A DNA stretch of 64,000 nt from a candidate division FCPU426 bacterium (lineage in GTDB: Bacteria; Oederibacteriota; JAAXVQ01; JAUVAV01), in assembly GCA_030591525.1 (NCBI GenBank), contig JAUVAV010000004.1, positions 3,307 through 67,306 on the forward strand. The letters run 5' to 3'. A model generated the notes under the pieces. That model saw nothing but the letters and a program-made list of their open reading frames with translations, had not been told where the DNA came from and did no database searches. This document shows positions 15,759 through 48,985 of this stretch, in pieces. The translations under genes were made by a program, and so were the position numbers. Position 1 is the first letter of the stretch. Each line of letters opens with the position of its first letter.

Positions 15759-15772
15759 GGTTCACACCCTTC

Positions 15773-16372: not shown

Positions 16373-16401
16373 AATTCCTTCCTCCTTGTGTGTTTTTTTT
16401 T

Positions 16402-23966: not shown

Positions 23967-24035
23967 ATAGCCAATTCTATATATGTTGCATCATAAGCAG
24001 ATAAATGATGTTCTCTGGTCAATAACAAAGCAGTG
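23967..24035. repeat. 69-bp direct repeat (left copy) bracketing the AbiE cassette. It is a duplicate of the vapC 3' coding end.
   Basis: atagccaattctatatatgttgcatcataagcagataaatgatgttctctggtcaataacaaagcagtg matches 25711-25780 with 4 mismatches. The right copy lies inside vapC, encoding ...LLLAREHHLSAYDATYIELAM. Confidence 0.7.
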
Positions 24036-24077
24036 AATTTTAGGAGACGTTGTGGGCTGACCCAGGTTTAACGGACA

Positions 24078-25528: not shown

Positions 25529-25629
25529 ATACACTATTATACATAATTGTCTATTAATGTAAACGTTAATCGTGATGCATACTTCCACAAATGCCCGGGG
25601 TCAAAGTTAGCTTGTAATTCCGCCCCTGT

Positions 25630-26043
25630 TCACTCCCATAGCTTTACTCCAACTTTTTTAGCTGCCTTCCGTAAGGTCAGGTCCAACGTGGCGAAAGGTA
25701 TGCCTTCCCGCATAGCCAATTCTATATATGTTGCATCATAAGCAGATAAATGATGCTCTCTGGCCAATAACAAAGTAGTGGAAAAGGCCTTATATGTCGT
25801 ATCTTGATCCACTACAATTGGCAATGAATTTAACAGACTCAAAAATCGTGCAGAATCCGCCTCTTTAAGGCGCCGGCGTCTTTCCGCTACTAAAAGCACA
25901 TTTGAAACTTCCAATGGCCATAAACTCGGCACTATGGCCTCGGAACGAGATAGTGCTTCCAGTATTTTTTCGGTATCCAGCGTAACTTCATCCTCAAAAC
26001 ACCAACTCATAGTTACCGAACAGTCCAGCACAAACCGCTTCAA
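25630..26043 (-). CDS. vapC: PIN-domain ribonuclease toxin VapC.
   Basis: It contains VLDCSVTMSWCFEDE...AYDATYIELAMREGIPFATLD with the PIN acidic residues. It overlaps the upstream antitoxin gene by 4 nt. Confidence 0.8.
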   Translation of the reverse strand: MKRFVLDCSVTMSWCFEDEVTLDTEKILEALSRSEAIVPSLWPLEVSNVLLVAERRRRLKEADSARFLSLLNSLPIVVDQDTTYKAFSTTLLLAREHHLSAYDATYIELAMREGIPFATLDLTLRKAAKKVGVKLWE

Positions 26044-27552: not shown

Positions 27553-29379
27553 TTAAATAATCCGCGTTTCCTCTCCCAGGTCAAAATCCAACCCGGCACA
27601 ACCCTGGTTTAAAGCCACAGTTATGGGAAGCTGTCCGGCCACCGGGCCCCAAAGCTGGCGGGGACCGGGCGAGGAGAAGCAATCCTCTCCGGCCCAGCGT
27701 TCCCGGACCGAGAGAAAATATTTAAAAGCAGGCGAATCGGTCTCGACCAGGGCTTTTTCAATCACCATCTCATCCCGGCCGTGCCGCCGTTCTACATGTA
27801 TCAACCCGGTCAGGGGCAGCGCCAAGGCCTCGCCGCCACAATCCAGGGCGCTTATAGCCGCCATGTAACCGGTCTTGCCGGCCAGGGCCAGAGACCCGGC
27901 CGTTAGCCCTAAATTAAAAGTATAAGCCGCGTCAAACCGGCTGGGCGCTCCACAACGTCCTTCATACCCGAAGAAATGACTATTAGTGGCAAACCGGGAC
28001 TTTACAAACCTTTCGACTTCTTCCGGCGCTAAATCTATCTGCTCTTCCGCCTGACCGATAAAGGGCGCGGGATTGACTTTCATTTCGTGCAGACGTATAT
28101 TTACCATCTCAATTAATAATTTTTCGGTCGGAATCTGGGAAACCTGCAGATTACCGTGGGAATCGCGGTCCAGGAGAAGCATGTTCTCAAACTCATGCGG
28201 CAAGGAAGCCATCAGTTTGACTGACTCGGCCGATATTTTTCCATAGATGAAATCCTTTTTCTCCGCCATGGTATTAAGTTCGCTTAAAAGCCGGGCCGAA
28301 TCAGCCATGACCTCATTAAGTTCCTTTATCAATATTTTCATCTCCGGGATAAACTCGATCAACCCTTCGGGAATTAAAATCACGCCATAATTTATACCCC
28401 GGCCCGCCCGCCGGGCCACAGACCGGCAGATAATATCCACGATCTGGTGCAAAGAGAGTTTTTTTTCCTCGAGTTCTTCCGAGATAAAGGCGATGGCCGG
28501 CTTGGTCTGTAAGGCCACTTCCAGGGCCACATGGCTCGCGCTGCGTCCCATGAGCTTGATAAAATGCCAGTATTTCCGGGAAGAAGGTGTGTCCTGGAGG
28601 ATGTTGCCGACCAACTCGGAATATATTTTCGTGGCCGTATCAAAGCCGAAGGAAATCGGCAGCAACGCTCCTTCCTGGAGATCGCCGTCAATGGTTTTGG
28701 GAACCCCGAGAACCTGCACGCCCCGCCCGTCGGCATGCACATTCTCAAAAAGATACTCGGCCAATACGGCGGCATTGGTATTGGAATCATCGCCGCCGAT
28801 AATCACCAGGGCATCCACGCGCTGGTCACGGCAGACCGCTTTAACCAGCTTGAACTGCCCATGATTCTTGATCTTGGTACGGTCCGTACCCAGAAAATCA
28901 AACCCGCCGGTATTCAGGAGCCGGTTTAAATCTTCTTCCTTGATTTCAAATAAACTGCCTCCCAGCAGACCTTTTGGCCCGTGTTTCACGCCCAGTAAGA
29001 CATTATCCGGTCCCAGGGCTTTTTTTAAACCCGCTAAAACATTATGCCCCCCGGCCGCCGGACCGCCGGAAAACAGGACTGCCACGCGTTTCCCGGATAC
29101 CAGGGGACGGTTCGCAATATCCGCCTTTAAAACGCGGTCCCCGGTCTGGGGATATAATTTCGGAAAAGCTTCGGCCACCCGGTTTAAATCACGGTTTTCC
29201 GCCAGCTTCTCTTCCGACGGTTTGAATCCGGCCGGCGCGATTTTCTTGTTTTCAATAAAAGCTTTTTTCACGGGCAGAGGAAGATTCCTCACCTCTCTCT
29301 CAAAAAGCGAGCGGTTTTTCTCGGTTTCTTCCCATACCCGGATCAAATCCGGATTGGCGGTTTTAGTGCTGGATGACAT
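27553..29379 (-). CDS. pfp: Pyrophosphate-dependent phosphofructokinase (long type, 608 aa).
   Basis: It carries the motifs GGPAAGGHNV, IIGGDDSNTNAA (Asp at the ATP/PPi-discriminating position), GVPKTIDGDL and LMGR. Confidence 0.8.
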   Translation of the reverse strand: MSSSTKTANPDLIRVWEETEKNRSLFEREVRNLPLPVKKAFIENKKIAPAGFKPSEEKLAENRDLNRVAEAFPKLYPQTGDRVLKADIANRPLVSGKRVAVLFSGGPAAGGHNVLAGLKKALGPDNVLLGVKHGPKGLLGGSLFEIKEEDLNRLLNTGGFDFLGTDRTKIKNHGQFKLVKAVCRDQRVDALVIIGGDDSNTNAAVLAEYLFENVHADGRGVQVLGVPKTIDGDLQEGALLPISFGFDTATKIYSELVGNILQDTPSSRKYWHFIKLMGRSASHVALEVALQTKPAIAFISEELEEKKLSLHQIVDIICRSVARRAGRGINYGVILIPEGLIEFIPEMKILIKELNEVMADSARLLSELNTMAEKKDFIYGKISAESVKLMASLPHEFENMLLLDRDSHGNLQVSQIPTEKLLIEMVNIRLHEMKVNPAPFIGQAEEQIDLAPEEVERFVKSRFATNSHFFGYEGRCGAPSRFDAAYTFNLGLTAGSLALAGKTGYMAAISALDCGGEALALPLTGLIHVERRHGRDEMVIEKALVETDSPAFKYFLSVRERWAGEDCFSSPGPRQLWGPVAGQLPITVALNQGCAGLDFDLGEETRII

Positions 29380-32926: not shown

Positions 32927-33051
32927 GCGTTTAGTCTGTTTTTGAGAGTAGATAGTAGAAAGTGGACCGCATTTGAGATATTTTATCTAATTTCTACTAT
33001 CTATTCTCAAATGCTCTGGAGCCTGAGCAACTAACTGCTCAAACTCCTAGT
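32927..33051. repeat. Inverted-orientation copy of the ~120-bp MITE-like element.
   Basis: It is bounded by ggagcctgagcgtttagtctg on the left and ggagcctgagcaactaactgctcaaactcctag on the right, between the RND gene and pfk. Confidence 0.6.
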
Positions 33052-34138
33052 CCCCCAGGCAGATATTGTGGCCGCGGGCGGTTTTTAATAGATAATGGTC
33101 CTGGTTGATCAGGTTATAGGCGGTTGCTTTTTCCAGGGGGACATCCACGATATCCGGATGTTGGTACGCGACCATGCGCCCGAATTTCTCTTCCTTAATT
33201 AATTCCACGGCCTTGACTCCGAACTGGGTGGCCAGTATCCGGTCAAAAGCGCAGGGTATGCCTCCGCGTTGGAGATGCCCCAATACTGTAACACGCATAC
33301 TGATATCCAATCGGGCCTTCAACTCTTCCATCAGCTTAAAACCGATTCCGCCCAGGCGGACGTTTTGATATCCTGCCTCATCGCTCTCCCTGGCTGCTTC
33401 CCTGCCTCCTGCCGGCTTGGCGCCTTCGGCAACAACGATAATCGCAAATCCCTTCCCGTTTTTTATGCGGCTCCGGATCTTGGCAACTACTTTTTCAATA
33501 TCATAGGGAATCTCGGGAATCAGAACCACCTCCGCGCCCCCGGCCACGGCCGCGCTCAAGGCGATCCATCCCGCGCCCCGGCCCATAACTTCCAGAATCA
33601 TAACCCGGTTATGGCTGGCTGCTGTGGTCACCAGCTTGTCAACCGCGTCGGTCGCGACCTCCACCGCGGTCTGGAATCCGAAGGTAAAATCCGTACAGGA
33701 AAGGTCATTGTCTATGGTTTTGGGGACGCCTATAATATTCACCCCTTTTTGAAAAAGCCGTTGGGAGATATCCTGCGAACCATCGCCGCCGATATTGACC
33801 ACAGCCTCTATCTCCTGGGATTTCAGCCGTTGGATAAGCTCATCCGAACGGTCCACGGTTTCCCAGGAACCGTCCGGCTTTTTAATCGGCCAGGCAAATG
33901 GCGAGCCTTTATTTGTGGTCCCGATAATCGTCCCACCCCTGACATGAATACCGGCTACGGTCTTCTTATCCAGCTGCATGATTTCCATGGGCTCCTTTAA
34001 AATGCCGTGAAAAGCATCTATGGACCCTAAAACCTCCCAATTGTCCTCTTGGCCGGCCCGCTTGACAATCGCACGAATAACGGCGTTCAAGCCAGGACAA
34101 TCCCCTCCGCCGGTAGTGACTAATATGCGTTTAGCCAT
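33047..34138 (-). CDS. pfkA: 6-phosphofructokinase, group III (mixed ATP/PPi signature). The start was chosen at MAKRILVTTGGGDCPGLNAVI, and the ORF track extends it to 34381.
   Basis: It has the motifs GGGDCPGLN, NIGGDGSQD (Gly), GVPKTIDND (Lys), MGR and HLQRGG. The chosen start overlaps the iscS/nifS stop by 8 nt. Confidence 0.7.
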   Translation of the reverse strand: MAKRILVTTGGGDCPGLNAVIRAIVKRAGQEDNWEVLGSIDAFHGILKEPMEIMQLDKKTVAGIHVRGGTIIGTTNKGSPFAWPIKKPDGSWETVDRSDELIQRLKSQEIEAVVNIGGDGSQDISQRLFQKGVNIIGVPKTIDNDLSCTDFTFGFQTAVEVATDAVDKLVTTAASHNRVMILEVMGRGAGWIALSAAVAGGAEVVLIPEIPYDIEKVVAKIRSRIKNGKGFAIIVVAEGAKPAGGREAARESDEAGYQNVRLGGIGFKLMEELKARLDISMRVTVLGHLQRGGIPCAFDRILATQFGVKAVELIKEEKFGRMVAYQHPDIVDVPLEKATAYNLINQDHYLLKTARGHNICLGD

Positions 34139-35318
34139 CAGGCCCTCCTGTTTTTTTTCGCTGGTTCCAGAAAGGCGACATGTCCCGGAGCTCGGCGATA
34201 ATCGGCGGCAGAACCTCCAACACGCGATCCACCTCTTCCTGTGTATTATACCGCGAGAAACTAAAGCGTATAGATCCGTGAATATCCGTAAAGGGCACGC
34301 CCATGGCCCGTAAAACGTGGCTGGGTTCCAAGGAACCGGAAGTACAGGCCGAACCGGAAGAAGCGCAGATACCATACTCATTCAATTTTAAAAGAATGGC
34401 CTCGCCCTCGATGTAGGTAAAACTGATATTCATGGTCGCGGGCAAACGATGCTCTACATCCCCGTTTACGCGGATTTCGGGAATCCGTTCCAGGATGCCT
34501 TGCTCTAAACGGTCCCGCAGAGCAGCCATCCGCACTGTCTCGGTTTTGCAATCAGACATGGCCAATTCGCAGGCCCGGCCCAGGCCAACCTGGCAGGCCA
34601 CATTTTCAGTACCTCCCCGGCGCCCGTTTTCCTGGTGCCCGCCCATGATAAACGGTACGAACCTGGTTCCCCGCCGGATAAACAAAGCTCCCACGCCTTT
34701 GGGAGCATGCAGCTTGTGCCCGGAAATCGATACCAGGTCAGCTGCCAGGGTCTGCATATCCAGGTCCAGCTTGCCTGCGGCCTGTACGGCATCGCAATGG
34801 AAAACACACCCTTTTTCCTTAACTATTTCTCCGATCTTTCTCACTGGAAAAATTGTGCCGGTCTCATTGTTAGCATACATTATCGATACCAGAGCGGTGT
34901 CCGGCTTAATTGCTTCGCGGAGCATCTCAAGCTCCAGCCGGCCCTGGGCGTCTACGGGCAGATAGGTCACGCGGTATCCCTGATGTTCCAGATGGCGGCA
35001 AGGACTCAGGATTGCCGGGTGCTCGACCCGGGTGGTTATAATATGGCGTTTTTCGGGAAAGGCTTCCAATACTCCGCGAATAGCCGCGTTATCCGATTCC
35101 GTGCCACCGCTGGTAAAAAGAATCTCGTTCTCCCGAACATGGAACAGTTCAGCGACCCGGGCCCTGGCATTCTCTACAGCGTGCGCCAATTGGCCGCCGA
35201 AAGTATGCATGCTGGAAGGGTTGCCGTAAAACTCCCGGTAATACGGCAGCATGACTTCCAGCACCTCGGGCGCCACTGCCGTGGTGGCATTATTGTCCAG
35301 ATAGATTACCTTGCTCAT
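34131..35318 (-). CDS. nifS: Cysteine desulfurase (NifS/IscS class I).
   Basis: It contains the PLP-Lys motif SISGHKLHAPKGVGALF and the active-site loop SSGSACTSG. It is operonic with nifU. Confidence 0.9.
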   Translation of the reverse strand: MSKVIYLDNNATTAVAPEVLEVMLPYYREFYGNPSSMHTFGGQLAHAVENARARVAELFHVRENEILFTSGGTESDNAAIRGVLEAFPEKRHIITTRVEHPAILSPCRHLEHQGYRVTYLPVDAQGRLELEMLREAIKPDTALVSIMYANNETGTIFPVRKIGEIVKEKGCVFHCDAVQAAGKLDLDMQTLAADLVSISGHKLHAPKGVGALFIRRGTRFVPFIMGGHQENGRRGGTENVACQVGLGRACELAMSDCKTETVRMAALRDRLEQGILERIPEIRVNGDVEHRLPATMNISFTYIEGEAILLKLNEYGICASSGSACTSGSLEPSHVLRAMGVPFTDIHGSIRFSFSRYNTQEEVDRVLEVLPPIIAELRDMSPFWNQRKKTGGPDG

Positions 35319-37569: not shown

Positions 37570-38817
37570 ATGCGTGTATTAGTAGCTGATGATGATCAAA
37601 TATCCTTGCGCGTATTAGAAAAATCAGTTGCCGGGTGGAATTACGAAGTGGTATTGGCCAAAGACGGCAAGGAAGCCTGGGATATTCTCAGCCGGCCTCC
37701 CCTTCCCAGTATAGCTCTGCTGGACTGGATAATGCCCGGGCCTGACGGTCTGGAGCTCTGCCGCCGCCTGCGAAATCAAAAGAACGCTAAGTTTATATAT
37801 ATTATTTTAGTAACCTCCAATGACCGGCCCGAGGACATCACCACCGGCCTGGACGCCGGAGCCGATGATTACATTACAAAACCCTTTAATAAAGCAGAAT
37901 TGAAAAGCCGGATAGCATCCGGCCGGCGGGTGGTAGAATATGAAAACTCGCTTAAACAAATTAACGAGGAATTACGCCGATATTCCCTGGATATGGAGAT
38001 TCTGGCACAGGAACGGGCCCAGCAGCTGGTCCAGGCTGACCGCATGATCTCCCTGGGAACTATGGCGGCCGGCATTACCCATGAAATCAACAATCCTTTA
38101 ACCATCCTGCAAGGAAATACTATCTTGCTTAATAAAATCTGGCAGACTTCGGGGATAAAAAATCTGGCCGAGTCTCTGAAACCCACAGGCGACAATACGG
38201 ACGCGTCTCATCTCTTTCCGAATATCAGCGAAATAATCGAAGCTCTGCAAAATGGCGTGAGACGTATCCGGAAAATTGTTGACGGCATGCGCATTTTCTC
38301 CCATGGTCAGGGCGGAAAAATAGAACAGATCGACCTGCGAGCGTGTTTACATGACGCCATCCAAATCTGTCTGTCTAGAACTAAATATCTGGGCGGCGTG
38401 AAAACCAAGGTTGAGGAAATCCCTTTTTCAGTAAAAGGCAATCCGGTTCAAATAACCCAGGTCCTGGTTAATTTTATTGCCAATGCGGCGGATGCGCTCG
38501 CCTCCACCCCTAAACCTGTGCTGAACATCCTGCTTCGTCCTTCCAGCCGCCAAGCGCTTTTCACTATCCAGGACAACGGCCCCGGCATAGCTCATGAAAA
38601 CATTAATCAGCTTTGGAGTCCCAGTTTCACTACTAAACCTGTCGGAAAAGGAACCGGTTTAGGACTGGCTATCTGCCATAATATAATAGCCGGCCACGGC
38701 GGAGATATTAAGGTGAATTCCAAACTAGGCGTTGGCACAACCTTTACGGTCCAACTGCCTGATGCGGAGGAATATGATCGTATCATGGAGATACGGGAAA
38801 AAATCCAAAAAGAGTAA
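37570..38817 (+). CDS. Response-regulator/histidine-kinase hybrid (N-terminal REC fused to HisKA-HATPase).
   Basis: It contains VLVADDDQISLRVL...LLDWIMPGPDG, then ITHEINNPLT (H-box), and DNGPGI and GTGLGL (G-boxes). Confidence 0.8.
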   Translation: MRVLVADDDQISLRVLEKSVAGWNYEVVLAKDGKEAWDILSRPPLPSIALLDWIMPGPDGLELCRRLRNQKNAKFIYIILVTSNDRPEDITTGLDAGADDYITKPFNKAELKSRIASGRRVVEYENSLKQINEELRRYSLDMEILAQERAQQLVQADRMISLGTMAAGITHEINNPLTILQGNTILLNKIWQTSGIKNLAESLKPTGDNTDASHLFPNISEIIEALQNGVRRIRKIVDGMRIFSHGQGGKIEQIDLRACLHDAIQICLSRTKYLGGVKTKVEEIPFSVKGNPVQITQVLVNFIANAADALASTPKPVLNILLRPSSRQALFTIQDNGPGIAHENINQLWSPSFTTKPVGKGTGLGLAICHNIIAGHGGDIKVNSKLGVGTTFTVQLPDAEEYDRIMEIREKIQKE

Positions 38818-38831
38818 TACCGGAGCAGAGA

Positions 38832-41051
38832 TCAGCGGGGCAGGGTGATGGTGATTTCCACTCTCCGATTCCTGGCCCGGGTATGGGCTCTCCTCCCGCT
38901 TTCCAGGGGCCGTTTCTTGCCATAACCTTCCATCCTGATAAGGGATGATTGCAAGCCTTCTTCCTCCACTAAATAGCGCATGACCATTTTCGCCCTTTTT
39001 AAAGACAACTCCAGGTTGTATTCCTTAGAGCCGACATCATCGGTATGTCCTTCAATAAACACCTTTACTTTTTCCGGCGGATACATGTTTACCAGGTCCG
39101 CGGTTTTCCGCAGTTTTTCGAACATGGCCGGTTTTAGTTCCGCCTTATCAAAATCAAAGAGAATCTGTTCTATCTTCAATTTTATCGCCTCCGGAGTTTC
39201 CGATAAAATTCTGACATCCGTAGCCGGTAAAACCGAGGCCTGCTGCCATACATTGCCCAAGGAGTCCTGCAGCCGAAGAACGTAATTATACTTCCGGTTG
39301 GTAGGCACCAAACGTCCTTTATCATCGCGGGAATCCCAAACCAGGGACCGGAATAGCCGGCCGGAACCATCAAATGTTCGAATGACTTCCCCGCTCTTGG
39401 CATCCATGATATTCAAGGCCCAACCTTGAATTTTAACTTCGTCCGGCAGTTTTAATTTAAAGGGAATCTTTTCCGCCAGGGGCAAACCCGAATCCGTCCG
39501 GGCCTTGGTTCCCGTGTCGACCACCACCAGAGGAGCAACGCTTTGAACCTCATTTCCCTTTTTATCCTTGACATTCAGGACAAAATGGAATCCTTCCTTG
39601 ATAGCTACGGGATATTGCTGCTCATTCCTGCCATCCCAAACCAGATCCTTAGGAATATTTCCCACGCCCGCATAATTTCTAAGCGTGCGGCCGTCATTAC
39701 TGACAATCGTAAGCGACCACTCCCTTACCTGCTCAAAAGACTTGGGAATAAAGCTTACTTTCCCGGCAAAAATATCCCGCGGCAGCGCTTTTAAACGGGG
39801 AAGTTTGGTAATGGAAACCGGCAGGATTTCCCCGCCTGACCGGACCGCATATCCCAGGCGGTCTGAAATTCGGCAATTGTAAAAATAGTAATCTTCCAGC
39901 TCCGCCCGGGCTCCCTGGTTATTGAGCCCGTCCCAGACAATGGTCAAAGGTAATTTATCATGTCCCTCAAAACGCCGGACTTGGCGGTGGGCGCGATCGG
40001 AAATCACCAGTTCCCAACGACTTATTCCGGCCGCGGCCTGTACCGAGGAAACAAAGCGCACCTCGCGCCCCACCTCCCCGTCTGGATAAACAAACTGTTT
40101 GGTAAGTATTCTCACTTCCAGCACGGGCCGGGCCAGACGGCGCTGGCTTCCAAAATCATAACTGCCGGAAAAGCGATGGGCCCAGCCCATAGTTCCCAGC
40201 GGCGAGAGAGCATAATCAATATGTATTCTCTGCCAGCGCAGGCCGGTTCCCAGGTTAAGCCAGTCTCCGGCATCAGCGCTCTTGATCCCGGCCCGGAGCG
40301 CCAGCAAATTCCATAACCAGCCCTCTGCTCCCACGGCCCATAACCAATCTCCCTGAAGAGGCACTTCAATCTCAGCCCCCAGGGAAATCCTATGGGGATC
40401 ATCCGGCCATAACCGGTAGGCCGCGCCGATTCCAAAATCCAAAGGCAGGGAATCCCGGGATTCCTGGAAAGCCGTTAAAAAGCCGGCATTGTCCACGGTA
40501 GCGGCCAGGAGCAGCTGATCATTAAACAGAAAATATTTTGCCCCCACATCCAGGGCCAGGCCCCAAGAGCGGGACGAGCTTAAATTAGACATTAGGTATT
40601 TAAGACGGCCGCCGACTGCCAAATGCTTTAAAGGTTTAAACGCATAACTGCCGGCTGCCAGCAGATCCCCGGCTTGTTCGGTCTTAATGCCGGGATCATC
40701 AGTGCTGTTAAAAGGAGGCACATTTAAATAAGCCGCTGTAAATCCCAGAGCGCCGGATTTACCCAGTGGCTGTACCGCCCATACGGCATCAAAGGTAATG
40801 TCGTCCCACCAGGACAGGTGGCTAAGTCCGAACTGGGGATTAAGCAAGCCTAAAATACCGGCGGGATTATAAAAAGCGGACTCGGCATCCTCACCCAGGG
40901 CGGAATAGCACCCTGCCAGAGCAGCTGAACGGGCGCTGGGTATGAGATGTAAAAACTCGGCACCGGTCGTTCCTTCCCCGCACCAGACCGGACCAGCCTC
41001 CAGAAAAAGGCCCAAGACCGCCAGTTTTAACCATCCTGAAGGTCTTCTCAC
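38832..41051 (-). CDS. Large OmpA-family outer-membrane protein: PorV/PorQ-like N-terminal barrel, FlgD-Ig-like repeats and a C-terminal OmpA peptidoglycan-binding domain.
   Basis: It has a signal peptide and [36 protein letters not shown]. The repeats read [21 protein letters not shown] and [23 protein letters not shown]. The C-terminus carries [12 protein letters not shown]...NRRVEITI. Confidence 0.65.
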
Positions 41052-43726
41052 TTGACCACTAACACCTTTCGGATTTCACGCCTGCCATGGCTTTCCAGCA
41101 CGACAAAATAAACTCCTGAAGCCACATCCTGCCCTTCCTGGTTGCGGCCATCCCATTCCAGCCGGAAATATCCGCCAATAAAAGCTCTGGGCCGCGCCTG
41201 CCAGACCTGCCTCCCGGCCAAAGTAAAGATTGTTATCTTGAACTCTTCTTCTTTTAAAACCCCTACCCTGATTTCCAGGCTCTCCCGGTCCGGCGTAAAA
41301 CGGTTTTTATCCAGATAGAAAATCGCGCAGGGAGTAAAAGTAGGGGTGGGCGGCAACGTAGGGCTGATAGTAGGCGTCAGGGTAATGGTAGGACTAATGG
41401 TGCAAGTGGGAGTTATACTAACGGTCGGAGAAATGGTATAGGTCTGAGTAATAGTTGATGTTCTGCTGATGGTGCCGGTAACGGTAAGCGTAGGAGTTGA
41501 AGTATAGGTCAAAGTGCGGCTCGGAGTAGGGCTGGGTGTTGGTGTGGGCGTCGGGCTGGGGGTATTGCTTGGTGTAGAGGTTGGACTGTAGGGTGGCGTA
41601 TTGGTAGACGTAGGCGTATGCGTCAACGTAAATGTCGGGGTTGGGCTGGGCGTAACGCTCGGCGTAGGAGTTGACGTAGATGTTGGGCTTGGACTGGGCG
41701 TAACGCTCGGCGTAGGAGTCGACGTAGATGTTGGGCTTGGGCTGGGCGTAACGGTCGACGTAAACGTCGACGTAGATGTTGAGGTTGAGCTCGGCGTAAC
41801 GGTCGACGTAAACGTCGACGTAGATGTTAAGGTTGAACTCGGCGTAACGGTCGACGTAAACGTCGGCGTAGATGTTGGGGTTGGGCTGGGCGTAACGCTC
41901 GGCGTAGGGGTCCACGTAGATGTTGGGCTTGGGCTCGGCGTAACGGTAGATGTAGGCGTAGACGTATTGCTAGGGGTCGGGCTGGGGGTATTGCTAGGGG
42001 TTGGGCTGTAGGCCAGCGTATTGGTAGACGTAGGCGCAAACGTATTGCTGGGTGTCGGGCTCGGGGTATTGCTGGGCGTTGGGCTCGGGGTTGGGCTGGG
42101 TGTCGGGCTCGGGGTATTGCTGGGCGTTGGGCTCGGGGTTGGGCTGGGTGTCGGGCTCGGGGTATTGCTGGGCGTTGGGCTCGGGGTAAACGTAACTGTC
42201 GCAGTACCACCCGCTTCTAACCTGATAATCGCCTCTTCGCAGCGCATCAATCCTGAAACATTCGAGGCGCCCGTGCTTTCCGCAAACCAGATTTTGATGG
42301 TTTTTTCCTCATCATCGCTCGTAAGAAGTGCCTGAACTGTCAAGGTATTGGCGCGATTCGTGTCCCCTTTATTTCTCCAACGGCCGGCATCCGCGGAAAT
42401 CCATGTATCAAGCGCCATATTGGCAGAAGTCATTGTCACGGGAAAGTAAAAACTAACCAGATCAGAGCCTTTGTCCACGCACACAAACCGGGCATTGGGA
42501 ACGCACCACTTTAAGTACACCGTGGTATCACTAGTAGTTTCCCCACCGTCATCAATCCAGAAGGAGGTCATGGGAGGATCGTCCAATGTGTAGTAACAGC
42601 AATCTTGTGTGGCCGCGGTATAAATACGCTGACGTTGAGCATCCAACGCAATGGACCATATCGTGTCCGCATCGTCCGGTAAGCTCATCCAAGTCGGACC
42701 GCTTAGGATATCACCATCATTCGAATCCATACCAACCCACCCCAGGTCACCCGAACCGCCACTGGATCTTCCCATATACATCCGGTTTTGGGTGGCGTAA
42801 AGACTCGTGGCGTCGAGATTCAAACAAAGAATCGGAGACCCCATATCATCAGATGCGACTCCTGGGCCTAGCGGTTTGCCCCCCGAACCCAAGGTGAAAG
42901 TATAAATATTATTCTTTCCTGACAGGCAGGCATGTAAACGATTGCGCACGCTATCCAGGGCCAGGGACAGCACCGGATTAGAGCCGACTGCTGCTGGATA
43001 AGAAGTTCCGTCCAAGGTCTCGGGTATGCCAGCGGCATTCAGGTCATAGACTCTTATTTGTCCATCTCCGCAGCCCATATAAAGTTTGTTTCTCGCAGCA
43101 TCCAGAGCCAAGGAATAAACAGTTGCACCGGTAAAAAAAACAGGTAAAGCAGAAGCAGGATCCGCATTGATCTTTACTACTCCCAGCCCATCAGAATTGT
43201 GATTAAGCGCTACATAGAGACACCCGCGTTGAGTATCCAAAGCCAGAGCCTTGGCACCGGAGGTGAAAAAATCACAGGGAACGTTACCCACAACATCGCC
43301 AATGTTATCCAGGGTTAAGATATATAATTCATTGGTTCCGGCATGATTTGCCATATACAAGCGTTGGAGTTGGGTATCCAAAGCCAAACTGCGCGTATTG
43401 TCACCATAATTATAGGAAAGAGGCAGTACACTTGTATCTACATTGCCCTGGTCATTTAAAGAATAAACATAAAGATTGTCGCCGCTATTAGTATCCACGC
43501 CCAAATACAGCCGGTTGAGATTGGGAGCCACAGCAACAGCCTTACTGGATGAAATATCTGTTTCGGTATAACTTGTTGAGGAAACCGGGTCTGCAGCCAG
43601 GTGGGAAAAAGCAGGAAATAAAACCAAATAAAAGAAAAGCGATAAAACCAAGATCCCTGGCCATCGCGGAGACGAGCTGCGGAGATAATGGGAATTATGC
43701 AGCATTTTCCATCCTAATTCCAGCAA
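41048..43726 (-). CDS. Secreted surface protein with YVTN/LVIVD-type beta-propeller repeats, a ~250-aa Pro/Thr/Ser-rich low-complexity linker and a C-terminal FlgD-Ig / T9SS-CTD-like domain.
   Basis: The repeats include [37 protein letters not shown] and [17 protein letters not shown]. The PT(S) tract reads [18 protein letters not shown]... The C-terminus [37 protein letters not shown] resembles Por_Secre_tail/FlgD-Ig. Confidence 0.6.
41400..42210. repeat. Intragenic degenerate tandem repeats (~24-48 bp units) encoding the PT(S)-rich linker of the 41048-43726 protein.
   Basis: Units such as ggcgtaggagttgacgtagatgttgggcttgggctgggcgtaacgctc recur. This explains the multiple overlapping ORF-track hits in all frames. 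Confidence 0.7.
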
Positions 43727-43822
43727 GTTTTAAGTGAAATATTAGCCTTTCGCTTTTCCGTACGTAATTATCTCATGCTGTTTTTTAATCTCTAGAACAC
43801 TGAAATACGACACCCACGAAAC

Positions 43823-43850
43823 GTAGGGGCGTTTAATTAAACGCCCCTAC
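43823..43850. repeat. REP-like perfect palindrome GTAGGGGCGTTTAATTAAACGCCCCTAC.
   Basis: It was read directly, and an identical copy lies at 61590-61617. Confidence 0.7.
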
Positions 43851-43975
43851 AACTGTCGTTAATACCATAACCAACTACTATTATTTTACATTTCAAGCAA
43901 AAAAACAAGGTAAATAAATCATCCTAATGAAATTATATCTCACCAGCCGAAAATTTCAAAGAGTTCCAAATTTAA

Positions 43976-45058
43976 TTAAAAGAAGTTCTTCCGGCCATTG
44001 TTTTTTGTCCAATAGCTGCGGCCATTGCCTCGCTTAACTTTAAAGTAGTACTCATCAATAACTCCCTGACTATTGGGAATAGACAATGTCCCTCCGCCCT
44101 TTCCGGCTTCATCCAACTCGAATGTCATGTTTAAGCCATCCCGGGTGGAGGACATATTACAAACTGCCGCTTTATTCTGGGTGGAAGCCCGCACTTCAGT
44201 GAAGTATATATAATTGCCATTAGGCTCTCGGATGACTGGACTTCCATTATGCGAACTTTTAATCACTATACACTGCATCCACTGCGTGCTGCTCGAATTT
44301 AAAAATAAGCCCAGGTTAATCCAACTCAACTCACCTGTACCTTTCTTCGGGGAATGCATAAAATCCCAAAAAATCTCGTTTGCTTCTTCGTTGTTTTTAT
44401 AAATATCATATCCCTCTACATTATTAAAATACGATTTAGTAGTTATCTTGGTAAATGTTTCCGGAACATGCACATTTGTACTCTTAAAATAGTATCCCTC
44501 ACCATTTGTCCATCCTCTTGATTCAAGATCGCCGTAAAATCCTGAGTAAGGGTTCCAGGCATAGGGAAACAGTGTTACTTCGGGATCAAAGCCGCCGGGA
44601 TTAGTACCCAGCCCCGGGGACCAGCTCTGCTTAAGTACACCGAGGCAGGCCTTGAATAGATAGTGTCCCAGCCCGCAGCGAAAGGTGATTATGTAAAAGA
44701 GACGGCATCGAAGAATGCGCTGAACAGTGCTTTTTACTTCCGGATCAACGACATCTAATTTAAGCACATTATTGATGAACTTTTTCACGCTCCAGGGATT
44801 GAATTTTAATAAGCAGGCGCAAAACGTCCGGTTCGTCCACTTTCCTTTTTTTCCTAAACAAGCTGCCTGAAAAGAATTAGCCTCTGCATTTGCACCCGAA
44901 ATTGCTGTGCTTTGCTGGACCGCACCCAGCACCTGACTTGATATGGCTTGGGGCGCAGTCGGCCCCACAACACTTTTACCGCATCCAAAAATGGTTAGCG
45001 AAGTAAGGGCAAGGAGAAAAATACCTACCGTATATTTATTAACAAGTTTTTTACCCAT
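43976..45058 (-). CDS. Hypothetical lipoprotein encoded in an AT-rich islet.
   Basis: It has a signal plus the lipobox LTIFGCG. The low-GC gene is flanked by a REP hairpin at 43823-43850 and a TIR-bounded MITE-like element at 45234-45422. Confidence 0.45.
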   Translation of the reverse strand: MGKKLVNKYTVGIFLLALTSLTIFGCGKSVVGPTAPQAISSQVLGAVQQSTAISGANAEANSFQAACLGKKGKWTNRTFCACLLKFNPWSVKKFINNVLKLDVVDPEVKSTVQRILRCRLFYIITFRCGLGHYLFKACLGVLKQSWSPGLGTNPGGFDPEVTLFPYAWNPYSGFYGDLESRGWTNGEGYYFKSTNVHVPETFTKITTKSYFNNVEGYDIYKNNEEANEIFWDFMHSPKKGTGELSWINLGLFLNSSSTQWMQCIVIKSSHNGSPVIREPNGNYIYFTEVRASTQNKAAVCNMSSTRDGLNMTFELDEAGKGGGTLSIPNSQGVIDEYYFKVKRGNGRSYWTKNNGRKNFF

Positions 45059-45233
45059 TACTTCTTCTTACCTCCTTTTAATTTTTTTACAACTTTATTT
45101 TTGTGAAAGTATATCATAAGTTAATGACCGTGTAAAGTTTTTTTGGTAATTACAATGATATTTATTTTGGTAAATTTTTACAAGCAAAATGTTTCACGAT
45201 GAAACGTTTTTTGAATCTGGTGGGATACCGCTA

Positions 45234-45422
45234 GGAGCTTGAGCATTTAGACCATAATTCAAGTATTCCCCTCCCTTTTTGCGGCCTGTCCTGGCTGATT
45301 TAGGCCAGGGGAGGGGATAAAGGGGAGGGTGATAAAAGTCTTTAAAATCGTACGCTCAACTAATCTTTCCCCTCAAGGGAGGGGTATTATTTATATAAAA
45401 ATCGACTAAATGCTCAAGCTCC
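45234..45422. repeat. TIR-bounded MITE-like element (GGAGCTTGAGCATTTAGACC ... CGACTAAATGCTCAAGCTCC).
   Basis: It has 19-bp terminal inverted repeats around a 150-bp Gly-codon-like G-rich core (aggggaggggataaaggggagggtg). Solo termini of the same family occur at 9522-9544, 10064-10096, 12492-12526 and 49184-49224. Confidence 0.55.
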
Positions 45423-45507
45423 TTCGGGCGGCCACGGGGGACCGCCCCTACAAAAACCAATATGACCAACACACAATACATTTTAAAGGTTATCTTAAAT
45501 CCAATAA

Positions 45508-46416
45508 TTATGGGGTTTTTTTCAGGGATTCCAGGAAATCATAGGGATCAACTTTAATGCCATTAACATTTATTTGAAAATGAAGGTGATTCCCGGTCGA
45601 AGAACCCGTAGTGCCCACCTCCCCGATAATCCCGCCTCGCTTAACCATCTCGCCGTTTCTCACCAAAAGCTTTCGGAGATGCAAATATGTAGTGATTACT
45701 CCATAACCATGATCTATAAGCACACTATTGCCATGAGCGGTAAATGGCTCGGCTAAAACAACGCAGCCATCGGCCGGTACAATTATGGGTGTTCCTCCCA
45801 AAACCGCAATATCTATTCCTCCGTGAAACCAGGATTTCATTCCCTGGTTGTAAATGCGCTTCACGCCGAAAATTTCAGTAATTCTTCCCTTGACAGGCCA
45901 TATAAAAGGCGTCAGTCGCGGACCTGCGCCGGTTCCCGCCTGCTTCCGTACCGCGGCCATACGTGCTGATTCGGTCGCGAAATCATATTTTCCAAATCCC
46001 CTGATACTCAGGCGGACAGTTTTAAAAGGCTGCCGGGGCAGAACCTGTATGGCAATATTTATGGTCCGGATTTTTTGACCTTGGTGTGAAAAGGCGTTTA
46101 TAGTCACAGTCCCAGGACCAGGCAGCGTGTCCAAAGGTACGCCTAAAAAACCTTCATAGCATGTTGGCTCGTTGCTGACCGGGAGTAAGCGCGTGGTTTG
46201 GCCCCAGGCTTGCGCTATCAGGGTTAATTGGCAATCCGGGGAATCGGCATTAACTCTTAAAACATGGCCGGGTTCCATCTCTTGCTTGGAAACCCGCAGC
46301 TTGATCTCAGGAGGCAATATCCGTATGACGGTTCGAGGCGCGCAGGCGGCAAGACTGCATAAAATCAATGCAGGGATTAATATTTTGATAAGAAAATTAC
46401 TTCGCAAACAGGACAA
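45508..46416 (-). CDS. M23-family (LytM-like) metalloendopeptidase, secreted.
   Basis: It contains HGGIDIAV...GNSVLIDHGYGVITTYLHL...GTTGSSTGNHLHFQINVNG, i.e. the HxxxD and HxH zinc motifs. Confidence 0.8.
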   Translation of the reverse strand: MSCLRSNFLIKILIPALILCSLAACAPRTVIRILPPEIKLRVSKQEMEPGHVLRVNADSPDCQLTLIAQAWGQTTRLLPVSNEPTCYEGFLGVPLDTLPGPGTVTINAFSHQGQKIRTINIAIQVLPRQPFKTVRLSIRGFGKYDFATESARMAAVRKQAGTGAGPRLTPFIWPVKGRITEIFGVKRIYNQGMKSWFHGGIDIAVLGGTPIIVPADGCVVLAEPFTAHGNSVLIDHGYGVITTYLHLRKLLVRNGEMVKRGGIIGEVGTTGSSTGNHLHFQINVNGIKVDPYDFLESLKKTP

Positions 46417-48985
46417 CCTCCACGCGGCGGTTCTTCGCCCGGGCAGCGCCGGTATCTTCCCGGGATAACGGCTGCTGGGAACCCCGGCCCACTGTCTGAA
46501 TTTTTTCCGGCGTGATTTCCCCCTGCTTCTTCATAAAATCAGCCACGGTTTGAGCCCGGGCACGTGAAAGCTCAACCTGCTTGCCATCGGATTCCAGGCT
46601 GTCGCAATGCCCGCTCACTATAAGATGAAAATCGGTTTTATACCGCCCCAGGGTATCCGTGGCCCGGGTTAAAGACCGTTGTGAAGCCCCATCCAGGTCC
46701 GCGGCGCCGGATTTAAAAAGGACGCGAACCAAGTTAATAGATAGAGCCTTCTTGCCGGTATAAGCGCCAAGATCGCTCTGCAGGTCGGAAGACTCGGCAG
46801 AAGCTGTGGTACGCAGGCCGGATACCACGGTTAATACGGCACGGTAGATGTTACCACCCCCGACCGGTTTACCGTCCGAGCGGTCACCATCCCAAAGCAG
46901 ATTTTTAGGCGGAGATCCCTGACCATTGTATATCCTGATCGGCTTGGTCCGGCCTTGCCGCATGATTTTAAGCGTCCAACGCTTGATTGTCATGCTGCCT
47001 TGGACTTCAGGCCGCAGATTCACTCCTTGGCCCCCGCTTTTCTGCGGTTTAAAAAGTTGGTTCGCGGCCTTGAGACTTACGCTGAATGCGGTGTATTTTA
47101 TTCTGAACTTCACTGTAGATTCAGACTTCAAACCGACCTCATCCTGGTATTTCAACCTGGCACGGTACCGTCCGGCGGGCGCTGCCCTTCCTTTAACGCG
47201 CGGCGTCCATTTTAATTTCTGCGGAACTTCATCCCCTCCGCTTCTCTCATAAACTTTTTTTTGGCCTGGACTGAATATGGCAAAATTCCAGTTACGGCTT
47301 CCCCGGATTTCCGGAACTATAAATTTAAGTGGTTTGTCCTTTTGGGAGCCGGTAAGCATAACTGATTCGGGTCCGGAAATGCTTACTTTCCGGGCCTTGG
47401 TTTTAATCTCTACCGTCTGGGTAGCAGCGCCAATTTCCATACCATGTCTGTCTATAATGCGCAACAAAACCTGGTAGGCCCCATCGGGTAAAATCCGGCC
47501 CTGCTGGTCTTTGCCGTCCCATTCCAGGTTGCGCGGCAGGCGTGTGCCTCCCTCATAGGTCCAGGCAATCCGCCCCTCGCGGACAACATTCAATACCCAG
47601 CGCGAAACACGAAGTTTTTCCGAGGCCAGCCTTCCCACAAAAATGGTCTTGTCCTGACGACCGTCGTTATTGGGCGAGAAAGGATTGACGACCACATGCA
47701 AACGCAAATCCTGATTTACCAGGTTAAAACCTCCCAAATCGCCTTGCCCTCCGGAAAAATAGCCCGAAAAAATGGCCGGCATCTCCGGAACAGCTCCGAA
47801 GGACACGCTTTCCCGGTCGGCCGGTCCTTCCGGAATCGGCAAGCTGCTATAATAATTGTCCGTGGCCCCTTCCTCTTCAACCAACTCCCGGGTTTTCGGC
47901 GTTGCGGCGGGCATTGGCCGAACCTCCTCCTCTGCTCCAATTTCTTCCCACATTTCCGCCGCAGATTCCAGCGCCGAAAAAAGTTTTGATAATTCTACCT
48001 CTTCCGGCTCCGGCGTAGGAGAAACCCGGAGTTTGGGAGCAGACTCTTTTTTAGAAATTTCTTTTTTTTCTTCTCTCTGGAATCCCCAAGATACGCTGAG
48101 TTGATGGAAGGCGTCCGAAAAATAAACCGGAAGCTGCAGGGCATAATCCAATCGCAAATCACCGAATATCACGCCCAGACCCGCGGTGATCAAACCACTC
48201 TGATCCAGACGCTGCAAATAACCCAACCGTGCAGCCAGTTCGTCAATTCCTTCCGCATGAAATATTTGTTCCCAACCGGCACGGAAAACCCGGAAAGAAT
48301 CAAAATTCGGGTTTCTGCTTTCCTGGGCATCAAAACCTATGGTCAACAACTGCCGGGCGGAGAGATTAAAGGCCGCCCCGAAACGGAAAACATTGGGAAG
48401 AGAAATTTCCAGCCCCGGGCTTTTCAGCACGGTTTGGGCGTCCAGCATGGAGACACCGAAACGCATCGCCGTCCCCTGGGAAGCGGTGAAAACATCATAC
48501 ATCAATCCGATGTCCATCCCGCCGCCGGCCAGGGTCCCGGTTAAACCAGGAATTGCCTGACGCAGGTATTTACCGGTAATCCCCGCCATAAATTTTTTGT
48601 TACGCGAGATGGGAAAAGCTGCGGAAAACAGATACGCATCAAAATCGTCCCGGGATCCCCGGGGATAATTCAGTTTCAACCAACCTATACCGGTTACTAT
48701 TTCGGCCGGCAGCGGAACCGCGCCCGCCGCATAAAACTGTCTTAGATCACCCAGATCCTGATTGCCTATTCCAACAGCTAATTCCGGCCAGCTGAGATAA
48801 AACAGGGCGGCCGGATTGCTAAATACCGACTCCGCACTACCCGGCAGCGCTATGCCGGCACCGCCCAGGGCAGATACACGGGCTCCCAGACGTGCCGATT
48901 GGACCAAGGGTTCCCGCGCGGCACGAACCGGTTGGACAAACATTATCAAACAGCAGATTATGATAAACGCCTTGGTCAGGCGCAC
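46397..48985 (-). CDS. Second large OmpA-family outer-membrane protein, a paralog of 38832-41051, with an N-terminal barrel, FlgD-Ig-like repeats and a C-terminal OmpA domain.
   Basis: It has a signal peptide, ARVSALGGAGIALPGSAESVFSNPAAL, the repeats LEWDGKDQQGRILPDGAYQVLL and LLWDGDRSDGKPVGGGNIYRAVL, and the OmpA tail ...NRRVEVVLFAK. Confidence 0.65.
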   Translation of the reverse strand: MRLTKAFIIICCLIMFVQPVRAAREPLVQSARLGARVSALGGAGIALPGSAESVFSNPAALFYLSWPELAVGIGNQDLGDLRQFYAAGAVPLPAEIVTGIGWLKLNYPRGSRDDFDAYLFSAAFPISRNKKFMAGITGKYLRQAIPGLTGTLAGGGMDIGLMYDVFTASQGTAMRFGVSMLDAQTVLKSPGLEISLPNVFRFGAAFNLSARQLLTIGFDAQESRNPNFDSFRVFRAGWEQIFHAEGIDELAARLGYLQRLDQSGLITAGLGVIFGDLRLDYALQLPVYFSDAFHQLSVSWGFQREEKKEISKKESAPKLRVSPTPEPEEVELSKLFSALESAAEMWEEIGAEEEVRPMPAATPKTRELVEEEGATDNYYSSLPIPEGPADRESVSFGAVPEMPAIFSGYFSGGQGDLGGFNLVNQDLRLHVVVNPFSPNNDGRQDKTIFVGRLASEKLRVSRWVLNVVREGRIAWTYEGGTRLPRNLEWDGKDQQGRILPDGAYQVLLRIIDRHGMEIGAATQTVEIKTKARKVSISGPESVMLTGSQKDKPLKFIVPEIRGSRNWNFAIFSPGQKKVYERSGGDEVPQKLKWTPRVKGRAAPAGRYRARLKYQDEVGLKSESTVKFRIKYTAFSVSLKAANQLFKPQKSGGQGVNLRPEVQGSMTIKRWTLKIMRQGRTKPIRIYNGQGSPPKNLLWDGDRSDGKPVGGGNIYRAVLTVVSGLRTTASAESSDLQSDLGAYTGKKALSINLVRVLFKSGAADLDGASQRSLTRATDTLGRYKTDFHLIVSGHCDSLESDGKQVELSRARAQTVADFMKKQGEITPEKIQTVGRGSQQPLSREDTGAARAKNRRVEVVLFAK

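Follow-up and report, generated by a model that had tools for sequence, protein, structure and literature searches.

A coupled gene pair for a PorV/PorQ-family barrel with an OmpA tail and a propeller protein with a type-A-like sorting domain in a candidate division FCPU426 bacterium

What a PorV/PorQ-type outer-membrane barrel and a protein with a type IX secretion system (T9SS)-style sorting tail are doing side by side in a bacterium outside the Bacteroidota is the question raised by a five-gene cluster, A-B-C-D-E, in a 64-kb stretch of DNA from a candidate division FCPU426 bacterium (assembly GCA_030591525.1, contig JAUVAV010000004.1, positions 3,307 to 67,306 of the forward strand), referred to below as the window. 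T9SS has been described as confined to the Bacteroidota or the Fibrobacteres-Chlorobi-Bacteroidetes (FCB) group (PMC12365241, PMC7463736, PMC12398890). By 16S rRNA, FCPU426 contains the Goldbacteria, a group placed closest to Firestonebacteria and Elusimicrobia and not to the FCB group (PMC7031533). An earlier note on this DNA had placed the organism outside the Bacteroidota, in agreement with the nearest named relatives found here (candidate division FCPU426 and Firestonebacteria), and all open reading frames (ORFs) that it named were found on the minus strand at the positions listed in Table 1. The E protein combines a PorV/PorQ-family barrel with FlgD-Ig-like repeats and a peptidoglycan-binding domain, and its gene overlaps that of D, a propeller protein ending in a type-A-like C-terminal domain (CTD). 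We tentatively propose that E is a wall-anchored dock on which D is held by this CTD.

Architecture and coupling of the E and D proteins

The E protein carries a signal peptide followed by a barrel, three tandem beta-sandwiches and an OmpA-like domain (Table 1). It scored 134.2 bits against the PorV_fam model NF033709 (cutoff 90) over the whole model (positions 1-326), 29.6 bits against FlgD_ig (PF13860; cutoff 27), and 73.8 bits against OmpA (PF00691; cutoff 27.2). The motifs [15 protein letters not shown] and WDGRN, pointed out earlier, are both present in its sequence. An AlphaFold2 (AF2) model built on 20 orthologues, with a predicted local distance difference test score (pLDDT) of 83.9 for the whole protein, contains plug helices, a 14-strand barrel (residues 73-299), three beta-sandwiches, and an alpha/beta domain of the OmpA type. 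Foldseek searches with this model ranked PorV chains first, then OmpA-like peptidoglycan-binding domains, then FadL; the best matches were PorV chains 8gl6_F and 6h3i_F from the F. johnsoniae T9SS translocon (E 5e-14; target-normalised TM-score 0.64-0.68). A family profile of 15 E-barrel sequences also recovered PorV from the PDB (6h3i_F, E 5e-27), as well as TodX (E 1e-4); this match was found by the profile only, since phmmer with the E barrel as a single sequence gave no match in the PDB. We conclude that the E barrel belongs to the PorV/PorQ family and has a predicted 14-strand FadL-like fold closest to that of solved PorV.

The remainder of E points to a tether between the outer membrane and the wall. 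Its OmpA domain resembles OprF and A. baumannii OmpA-like structures, including the peptidoglycan-peptide complex 3td5 (33% identity; target-normalised TM-score ~0.82), and residues D671 and R686, which correspond to the Asp and Arg through which OmpA-like domains contact the peptide of peptidoglycan, are invariant in 20 E orthologues. The kept Asp and Arg and the likeness to peptidoglycan-bound OmpA-like structures argue for a role as wall anchor. The three Ig repeats match one another at 98-99% probability (hhalign). Where three or four repeats had been counted previously, custom hidden Markov models (HMMs) and the AF2 model gave exactly three, in E as in its paralogue A. The repeats lie between the last strand of the barrel and the peptidoglycan-binding domain. 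Since a barrel of 14 strands has its end on the periplasmic face, the standard topology of outer-membrane barrels predicts that in both A and E they act as spacers within the periplasm.

The D protein, for which 10-11 orthologues were aligned, is predicted to begin with a Sec-type signal peptide, judged by eye from a hydrophobic stretch before A-D-P that is conserved in all orthologues. The beta-propeller reported by the earlier note is borne out by seven LALDxxRNRLY blades and by a 7-bladed AF2 fold (pLDDT mostly 65-88), for which Foldseek returned E. coli YncE (3vh0, 3vgz, 7seu) and WD40 propellers at target-normalised TM-scores of 0.70-0.75, with YncE among the best matches (0.71-0.75). The propeller is followed by a sandwich conserved in all D orthologues and specific to them: a custom HMM of residues 385-506 scored 188-205 bits and found D-family proteins only, and hhalign detected no similarity of this region to the D CTD or to the E repeats. 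The Pro/Thr/Ser-rich stalk is somewhat longer than the 250 residues first estimated (Table 1), is mostly modelled at pLDDT <50, as expected for disorder, and varies in length among orthologues. In the DNA, positions 41615-42188 hold 48-nt tandem repeats, in arrays of 7.8 copies (84% identity) and 2.9 copies (100%). The repeats, one array of which is perfect, and the length differences among orthologues suggest that stalk length has changed recently through ongoing expansion and contraction.

The C-terminal ~93 residues of D match CHU_C, FlgD_ig, and Por_Secre_tail. Scanned alone, the domain scored 23.4 bits with TIGR04183 (cutoff 23), 28.9 with CHU_C (cutoff 27), and 19.7 with PF18962 (cutoff 27); FlgD_ig gave 20.6-22.6 bits on D, below its cutoff of 27. 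Among the CTDs of the D family, matches were obtained for TIGR04183 in 10/10 (best E 4e-8), PF18962 in 8/10, FlgD_ig in 10/10 (best E 7.6e-9), the CTD end (C-terminal ~60 positions) of the PorZ model in 10/10, and the PorU CTD in 8/10. The match of D to the PorZ equivalog NF052228 covers positions 696-757 only, that is, the CTD (26.5-31.5 bits; cutoff 260), and does not extend to full-length PorZ. Against the PDB, the D-family CTD profile found FlgD Ig domains weakly (E 0.006), and the T9SS substrate CTD 8glk_D (E 0.036) and PorZ 5m11 (E 0.16) marginally. In the AF2 model the domain has seven strands (residues 801-890; pLDDT ~71-88) and reaches the stop codon. Residue K887 (…IRKVLVVK), five residues from the C-terminus, is invariant in 10/10 aligned orthologues, and its position matches that of the only near-invariant residue through which type A CTDs contact PorV, a Lys (PMC10994853). 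Judged by profiles and by the modelled fold, the D tail is a type-A-like T9SS CTD, in keeping with the resemblance noticed earlier. Custom HMMs detected such a tail on D only within the window, and searching with a profile of the D CTD yielded just 21 short fragments, which give no measure of the number of CTD proteins in the lineage. The similarity between the D CTD and the E repeats is weak (hhalign probability 52-69%, E about 4e-5) compared to that among the E repeats themselves, although a WDGRN..G.Y motif is common to both.

The D and E genes are joined by a stop/start overlap in which the TGA of D shares nucleotides with the GTG of E, implying translational coupling of the two genes. The overlap is kept in every intact orthologous locus, being 4 nt long in L001, L003, and L085 (related loci are designated by L numbers) and 1 nt in L084. 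Between the C stop and the D start, the best promoter match of the region (TTGAAA-16-TATAAT, 11/12, sigma-70-like) is suggestive of a D-E promoter by its position alone, since counts from the promoter and terminator scans of the region were not above those for shuffled sequence.

Table 1. Features of the A-B-C-D-E cluster. Positions refer to the window; residue numbers (aa, amino acids) refer to the encoded protein.
Feature	Position	Strand	Length or residues	Basis
Five-gene cluster A-B-C-D-E	38832-48985	(-)		ORF coordinates
Gene E	38832-41051	(-)	739 aa	
E, PorV/PorQ-family barrel, predicted N-terminal plug helices and 14 beta-strands, short loops	40137-40979	(-)	aa 25-305	NF033709, AF2, Foldseek
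E, three tandem FlgD-Ig-like beta-sandwiches	39198-40130	(-)	aa 308-415, 416-512, 513-618	FlgD_ig, hhalign, AF2
E, OmpA-like peptidoglycan-binding domain	38835-39179	(-)	aa 625-739	PF00691, Foldseek
D/E overlap, GTGA	41048-41051	(-)		ORF coordinates
Gene D	41048-43726	(-)	892 aa	
D, predicted Sec-type signal peptide, mature start at conserved ADP	43595-43726	(-)	aa 1-44	by eye in alignment
D, 7-bladed beta-propeller, seven LALDxxRNRLY blades	42575-43594	(-)	aa ~45-384	alignment, AF2, Foldseek
D, family-specific beta-sandwich	42209-42574	(-)	aa 385-506	custom HMM, AF2 strands
D, Pro/Thr/Ser-rich low-complexity linker	41330-42208	(-)	aa 507-799 (~290 aa)	AF2, composition
D, C-terminal beta-sandwich akin to T9SS type-A CTDs and FlgD-Ig domains, final residues ...[22 protein letters not shown]	41051-41329	(-)	aa 800-892	
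Candidate D-E promoter, TTGAAA-16-TATAAT	43932-43959	(-)		promoter scan
Gene C	43976-45058	(-)	360 aa	
C, orphan lipoprotein, invariant GCG lipobox	43976-45058	(-)	Cys26	orthologue alignment
Gene B	45508-46416	(-)	302 aa	
B, lipoprotein with conserved lipobox Cys; N-terminal domain of no known family; M23 (LytM-type) peptidase	45508-46416	(-)	M23, aa 197-291	
Gene A	46397-48985	(-)	862 aa	
A, signal peptide and PorV/UPF0164-like barrel	within 46397-48985	(-)	barrel, aa ~23-305	
A, acidic low-complexity linker	within 46397-48985	(-)	aa ~306-430	
A, three FlgD-Ig-like repeats	within 46397-48985	(-)	aa ~455-527, 553-625, 641-730	
A, OmpA peptidoglycan-binding domain	within 46397-48985	(-)	aa 754-860	

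Companion genes, orthologues, and distant relatives

The A protein scored above the cutoff for OmpA (59 bits; cutoff 27.2) and below the cutoffs for PorV_fam (48 bits; cutoff 90) and FlgD_ig (24.1 bits; cutoff 27), and it is assigned to the PorV/PorQ family because of its paralogy with E. The HMM of the E barrel found A at E 3e-11, the Ig HMMs gave three matches in it, and BLASTP aligned the two proteins at 23% identity over the Ig and OmpA part (E 6e-25) and at E 4e-12 over the barrel. Judged by these alignments, A and E are true yet distant paralogues with a common barrel, FlgD-Ig, and OmpA layout, as had been supposed. They lie on either side of D but do not simply flank it, as C, a lipoprotein unmentioned before, stands between A/B and D in every syntenic locus. 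Six aligned C orthologues have 33 invariant columns; C matched nothing in Pfam or NCBIfam, and its profile found nothing significant in the PDB (best E 0.14). The B gene, which overlaps the end of A by 20 nt, encodes the expected M23 peptidase (Peptidase_M23, PF01551; 102 bits, cutoff 28.7) with intact zinc-binding motifs that are kept in orthologues (HxxxD as HGGID and HxH as HLH). Its N-terminal domain showed no FlgD-Ig similarity when tested, and the domain said to be common to the cluster proteins is real in A, D, and E, weakly so in D, and absent from B. In L005 (3664-12223) the A-C-D-E block stands without the M23 gene, and the cluster can thus dispense with B.

About 24 full-length orthologues of E were found, at 46-89% identity, and D and E orthologues occur on common contigs. 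Domain-level annotation of these proteins already exists at NCBI, where E orthologues are named 'PorV/PorQ family protein [candidate division FCPU426]' and 'OmpA family protein [Candidatus Firestonebacteria]' and a D orthologue 'T9SS type A sorting domain-containing protein [FCPU426]'. The A-B-C-D-E block has the same neighbours in L001/L002 and L084: upstream it is preceded by MTAP and MtnA, and on the downstream side come accA, an Amidase_3 gene, and a GerM-like gene. A short Firestonebacteria-labelled contig (L085) carries C-D-E with the same downstream genes, L086 carries a fragmented version, and the cluster genes are also present in L004 and in L005 (the latter without B). Orthologues of A hold the same position in L001, L004, L005, and L084. 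In L001, L084, L085, and L086, the E orthologue is followed by accA, the Amidase_3 gene (N-acetylmuramoyl-L-alanine amidase), and the GerM/Germane-domain gene. The lineage, close to Firestonebacteria and Elusimicrobia, thereby has a locus that is conserved and inherited vertically. The same housekeeping genes flank A-(B)-C-D-E in each long syntenic locus extending to them, and this constancy is in keeping with a core component of the envelope, not with a mobile island.

A second D-E pair, without A, B, and C, is found elsewhere in an FCPU426 metagenome-assembled genome (MAG), MAG080 (L003/L006, contig JBFLYH010000002.1). This pair adjoins an island of type I restriction-modification, SIR2, and HigBA genes (L003/L006 1-22235). 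A 361-aa protein with a weak Por_Secre_tail match is encoded ~2 kb downstream of it, and a stand-alone 321-aa PorV/UPF0164 barrel ~6 kb downstream, directly before a 939-aa PD40/tricorn-like protein in which no CTD was detected.

Beyond the lineage, the E layout is not rare. Spirochaetota MAGs (including Leptospira-labelled ones) encode ~870-900-aa proteins with a barrel, three to five Ig repeats, and an OmpA domain, and a Poribacteria MAG homologue (L028 7618-10089) has the same layout with a SPOR (septal peptidoglycan-binding) domain after OmpA. An exhaustive search with the E barrel returned 7,722 cluster representatives at E ≤ 1e-3; the best 150 of these are mostly stand-alone barrels of ~300 aa, and many others have C-terminal OmpA with or without FlgD_ig, TPR, or fn3 domains. 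In Pfam, the PorV/PorQ family falls within the PF19572/PF03687 superfamily, and distant relatives of E carry PF03687 (UPF0164). The contig scan for relatives used OmpA-domain peptide patterns, and most of its 80 loci contained generic OmpA proteins, the informative ones being L004-L030, L037, and L038. Among the loci examined, the tight pairing of the barrel with a CTD protein is particular to the FCPU426-like lineage. The combination that the earlier note had called unusual is therefore so with respect to this pairing, but barrel, FlgD-Ig, and OmpA occur together in many Spirochaetota and in the Poribacteria MAG as well.

Two further loci are of interest for the layout. In a Spirochaetia MAG (L013 9917-12658), a UPF0164 barrel with TPR (428 aa) and a protein with TPR, FlgD_ig, and OmpA (485 aa) are encoded by adjacent ORFs; this split may resemble PorP plus PorE or may be an assembly frameshift. 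An Eisenbacteria MAG (L039) was considered as a parallel pair, with a 1323-aa FlgD_ig-tailed protein followed by an OmpA protein, and was rejected, because no PorV-type barrel could be detected in the partner, which by eye has the look of a helix-rich lipoprotein.

A putative docking pair and its alternatives

Several T9SS proteins provide precedents for a CTD held by a barrel. PorV binds type A CTDs by long extracellular loops and a conserved CTD lysine, and carries type A cargo away from the translocon as a shuttle (PMC10994853). PorU and PorZ retain their CTDs and are thereby anchored to PorV and PorQ (PMC12365241, PMC10947112, PMC8545088), PorZ consisting of two propellers and an uncleaved CTD (PMC8545088). 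Cognate PorP/SprF barrels, often encoded next to their cargo, hold the type B cargos, and an OmpA-domain protein, PorE, fastens PorP to the wall (PMC9143113, PMC12618676). Pairs of a cargo with its own barrel thus include SprB-SprF, PG1035-PorP with PorE, and PorZ-PorQ (PMC9143113, PMC12618676, PMC10947112).

Since the E barrel is of the PorV/PorQ family, the D tail is type-A-like, the two genes are tightly linked, and D, like PorZ, combines a propeller (here with a sandwich) and a CTD, we suggest that E may be a wall-anchored docking barrel holding D by its uncleaved CTD, with A as a second tether associated with the M23 enzyme. We advance this tentatively, with confidence that falls somewhat below even. 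In such an arrangement, E and A would each form a fixed post from the outer membrane to the wall, with the 14-strand barrel in the membrane, three rigid Ig spacers in the periplasm, and the OmpA domain gripping peptidoglycan. The D protein would be made together with E by translational coupling, exported by Sec, and docked permanently by its CTD on the E barrel, so that the propeller would be displayed on a long, probably extended stalk and anchored to the wall through E. The A protein, with the M23 endopeptidase lipoprotein B and the lipoprotein C, would constitute a second tether linked to local wall remodelling.

The D-E pair would then copy the PorZ-PorQ and PG1035-PorP-PorE arrangements with barrel and wall anchor fused in one polypeptide. 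As in PorQ-PorZ of Porphyromonas gingivalis, where a 14-strand PorV/PorQ barrel anchors a protein with propellers and an uncleaved CTD (PMC8545088, PMC10947112, PMC12365241), the partner of E carries a propeller and a CTD, and among curated models the D CTD scores best against the PorZ CTD end. Unlike PorQ, which is a plain barrel, E has three Ig repeats and an OmpA anchor; D, in turn, has one propeller that does not match the PorZ model, an extra sandwich, and the long stalk, and the D and E genes are translationally coupled in a host outside the Bacteroidota. In the PorP-PorE-PG1035 and SprF-SprB systems a cognate barrel likewise holds a CTD protein, the PorE OmpA domain links the barrel to peptidoglycan, and the genes are often adjacent (PMC9143113, PMC12618676); however, a type B CTD and a PorP/SprF barrel are involved there, instead of a type-A-like CTD and a PorV-like barrel, and the wall anchor is a protein of its own. 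The split seen in the Spirochaetia MAG (L013), unless caused by a frameshift, resembles this two-protein state. PorV itself (LptO; 6h3i, 8gl6) is the best profile and structural match of the E barrel, and D keeps the lysine of PorV-bound CTDs (PMC10994853).

Several observations weigh against docking of D on E. No outer-membrane translocon for D was found: comparison of every sizeable ORF of the window with Pfam detected no SprA, GldK/L/M/N, PorU, PorP/SprF, or PorT family member, and none of the T9SS core genes SprA/Sov, PorK/L/M/N, PorU, PorT, and PorW turned up in the window or in those genes called in related loci that carry precomputed Pfam annotation, whole genomes lying outside this search. 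At ~280 aa, the E barrel is minimal next to the 402-aa PorV of F. johnsoniae. No predicted loop of E exceeds 12 aa, and by the family profile the E barrel lacks an equivalent of PorV residues ~254-321. As a shuttle, PorV is a barrel that moves freely and whose long extracellular loops reach into the SprA pore and enclose the CTD, whereas the E barrel has short loops and is fused to Ig and OmpA domains; being tied to peptidoglycan, E would be a static anchor, not a diffusing shuttle. Conservation of the extracellular loops equals that of the periplasmic turns (0.60 and 0.60) and does not tell the models apart. Full-length D remains under the curated TIGR04183 cutoff (19.0 vs 23), A has no CTD partner, and the AF2 structures are of E and D as monomers. 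Finally, the barrel need not be a CTD receptor, because barrel, Ig, and OmpA genes in Spirochaetota and Poribacteria stand without an adjacent D-like or CTD gene and UPF0164 barrels occur in Treponema pallidum (PMC10600179). The barrels of this spirochaete (TP0548, TP0856, TP0858, TP0859, and TP0865; PF03687) belong to the same superfamily as E but stand alone, with no Ig/OmpA tail and no CTD partner. Treponema UPF0164 barrels are generally regarded as FadL-like, and T. pallidum has, to our knowledge, no T9SS.

The partnerless genes and the treponemal barrels would also suit a locus concerned with envelope integrity only, in which A and E are OmpA-type tethers whose FadL/UPF0164-like barrels may pass hydrophobic compounds, B remodels the wall, and D is an independent, secreted or periplasmic, co-regulated protein adjacent to E for reasons of co-expression rather than docking. 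The sheer size of the barrel family (about 7,700 cluster representatives) with its varied OmpA, TPR, and fn3 periplasmic extensions, the detectable relationship of the E barrel to FadL and TodX, its short loops, and the wall enzymes nearby (M23 in the cluster, Amidase_3 and GerM downstream in relatives) all speak for it, yet the stop/start overlap of D and E is kept across orthologues that are only 46-57% identical, D-E is duplicated as a unit, the E barrel is far nearer to PorV than to FadL/TodX, and D has the very domain bound by PorV-family barrels (PMC10994853). We regard this explanation as rather unlikely. A full canonical T9SS encoded elsewhere in the genome, with D as an ordinary type-A cargo or a PorZ-like protein and E as the lineage's PorV/PorQ with an OmpA tail, would account for the NCBI names of the orthologues, for the matches of the CTD to TIGR04183 and to the PorZ and PorU CTDs, and for the additional weak Por_Secre_tail protein and stand-alone PorV-like barrel in L003 of FCPU426. 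We consider it unlikely, given the described restriction of T9SS to the Bacteroidota or FCB group, the position of FCPU426/Goldbacteria with Firestonebacteria and Elusimicrobia, and the lack of core genes in the window and syntenic loci. A peptidoglycan-tethered barrel cannot shuttle cargo as PorV does (PMC10994853), and the PorZ match is to the CTD only (31 bits; cutoff 260). Our literature search, moreover, found no report linking FCPU426 or Goldbacteria to T9SS or describing T9SS in Firestonebacteria or Elusimicrobia, the few co-mentions being reference-list citations. Conversely, FCPU426-like bacteria may have no SprA/PorKLMN T9SS at all, D-E being a self-contained, T9SS-independent CTD/PorV-type docking pair; this stronger form of the docking proposal we think doubtful.

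The earlier note had instead offered the FlgD-Ig sandwiches as a common interaction module of a surface tether system. For D this would mean either a periplasmic location or exposure of the A/E repeats, with the C-terminal sandwich of D pairing with the Ig repeats of A or E. The weak but detectable relationship between the D CTD and the E repeats, with their common motif, is consistent with such pairing, as are the matches of A, D, and E to PF13860 (below cutoff for A and D), and the periplasm would be the default location of D in a lineage without an outer-membrane translocon. However, the A/E repeats should by topology be periplasmic, and the E repeats are far more alike mutually than to the CTD, while a length-variable Pro/Thr-rich stalk of ~290 aa is typical of exposed proteins and, if extended, would span several times the width of the periplasm. 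We know of no precedent for Ig-Ig docking of such FlgD-Ig domains, whereas CTD-barrel docking is well documented. A common interaction module is accordingly very unlikely, the contact with precedent being that of CTD and barrel (PMC10994853). The idea of a tether fares better: among possible functions, that of a tether or anchor is the most plausible. Like OmpA and OprF, A and E combine an outer-membrane barrel with a C-terminal OmpA-like peptidoglycan-binding domain, but the OmpA barrel has 8 strands, whereas A and E have a predicted 14-strand PorV-like barrel and three inserted Ig spacers. The Leptospira adhesin Lsa66 (NF053608) aligns with their Ig and OmpA part only (A, 69 bits; E, 80 bits), far from the equivalog cutoff of 700 bits.

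Genomic surroundings and meaning of the locus

The genes flanking the cluster are housekeeping genes. One flank holds genes for a hybrid histidine kinase/response regulator, an undecaprenyl-phosphate translocase-like protein, NifU, NifS, and a phosphofructokinase (PFK), and the other those for a HAD hydrolase, MtnA, and MTAP. The hybrid kinase gene (37570-38817), divergently oriented, stands where relatives carry the accA/Amidase_3/GerM block, the replacement of which is thus a local rearrangement. Two phosphofructokinase-family genes are present on the minus strand (27553-29379 and 33047-34381), one of which is unusually long (608 aa); in the second, the start as listed produces an overlap of ~250 nt with the NifS-like gene and the PFK domain does not begin until aa 85, so that the true start probably lies further downstream. 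A LpoB-family lipoprotein (15773-16372, minus strand; 145 bits) is encoded between 443-aa and 178-aa ORFs that have no Pfam match, and this region (14427-16938) may hold a further set of envelope genes. An AbiEii toxin gene (24078-24890, minus strand) adjoins an unannotated 232-aa ORF (24890-25588, minus strand) in the lowest-GC stretch of the window (GC 0.386, 24001-26000), and the two are probably an inserted toxin-antitoxin or abortive-infection module. A giant ORF (3-9311, minus strand) continues beyond the start of the window and has a length of at least 3,103 aa. It shows a strong match to triosephosphate isomerase (PF00121, 195 bits) at aa 2824-3020 and weak ones to metallophosphoesterase and GAPDH-N, and segments resembling PGK and transmembrane stretches were recognised by eye; from its sequence it looks like several fused, membrane-associated glycolysis-type enzymes.

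T9SS, CTD signals, and PorV/PorQ/PorP barrels are treated as an invention of the Bacteroidota or FCB group, and a locus near Firestonebacteria and Elusimicrobia that encodes a wall-wired PorV-family barrel, coupled to a single CTD protein of PorZ-like layout (propeller and CTD), bears on that view. We found no published description of a fused barrel-Ig-OmpA protein paired with a CTD protein outside the Bacteroidota. The barrel with three Ig repeats and an OmpA domain represents an uncharacterised type of outer-membrane-to-peptidoglycan tether, found in Spirochaetota as well; such tethers known to us are Lpp, Pal, OmpA, and OmpM. If D does dock on E, anchoring of a CTD on a barrel can take the form of a device with one cargo and one anchor that is fused to a wall tether, and the pair would offer a simple two-protein system for CTD recognition without a 20-component machine. 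If the lineage truly lacks the T9SS core, the locus also bears on the origin of T9SS and on surface protein display in uncultured diderms. A T9SS-independent D-E pair would imply a new route across the outer membrane for such proteins, and CTD/PorV-type docking would then be an older, wider envelope module that was later recruited by the T9SS of Bacteroidota.

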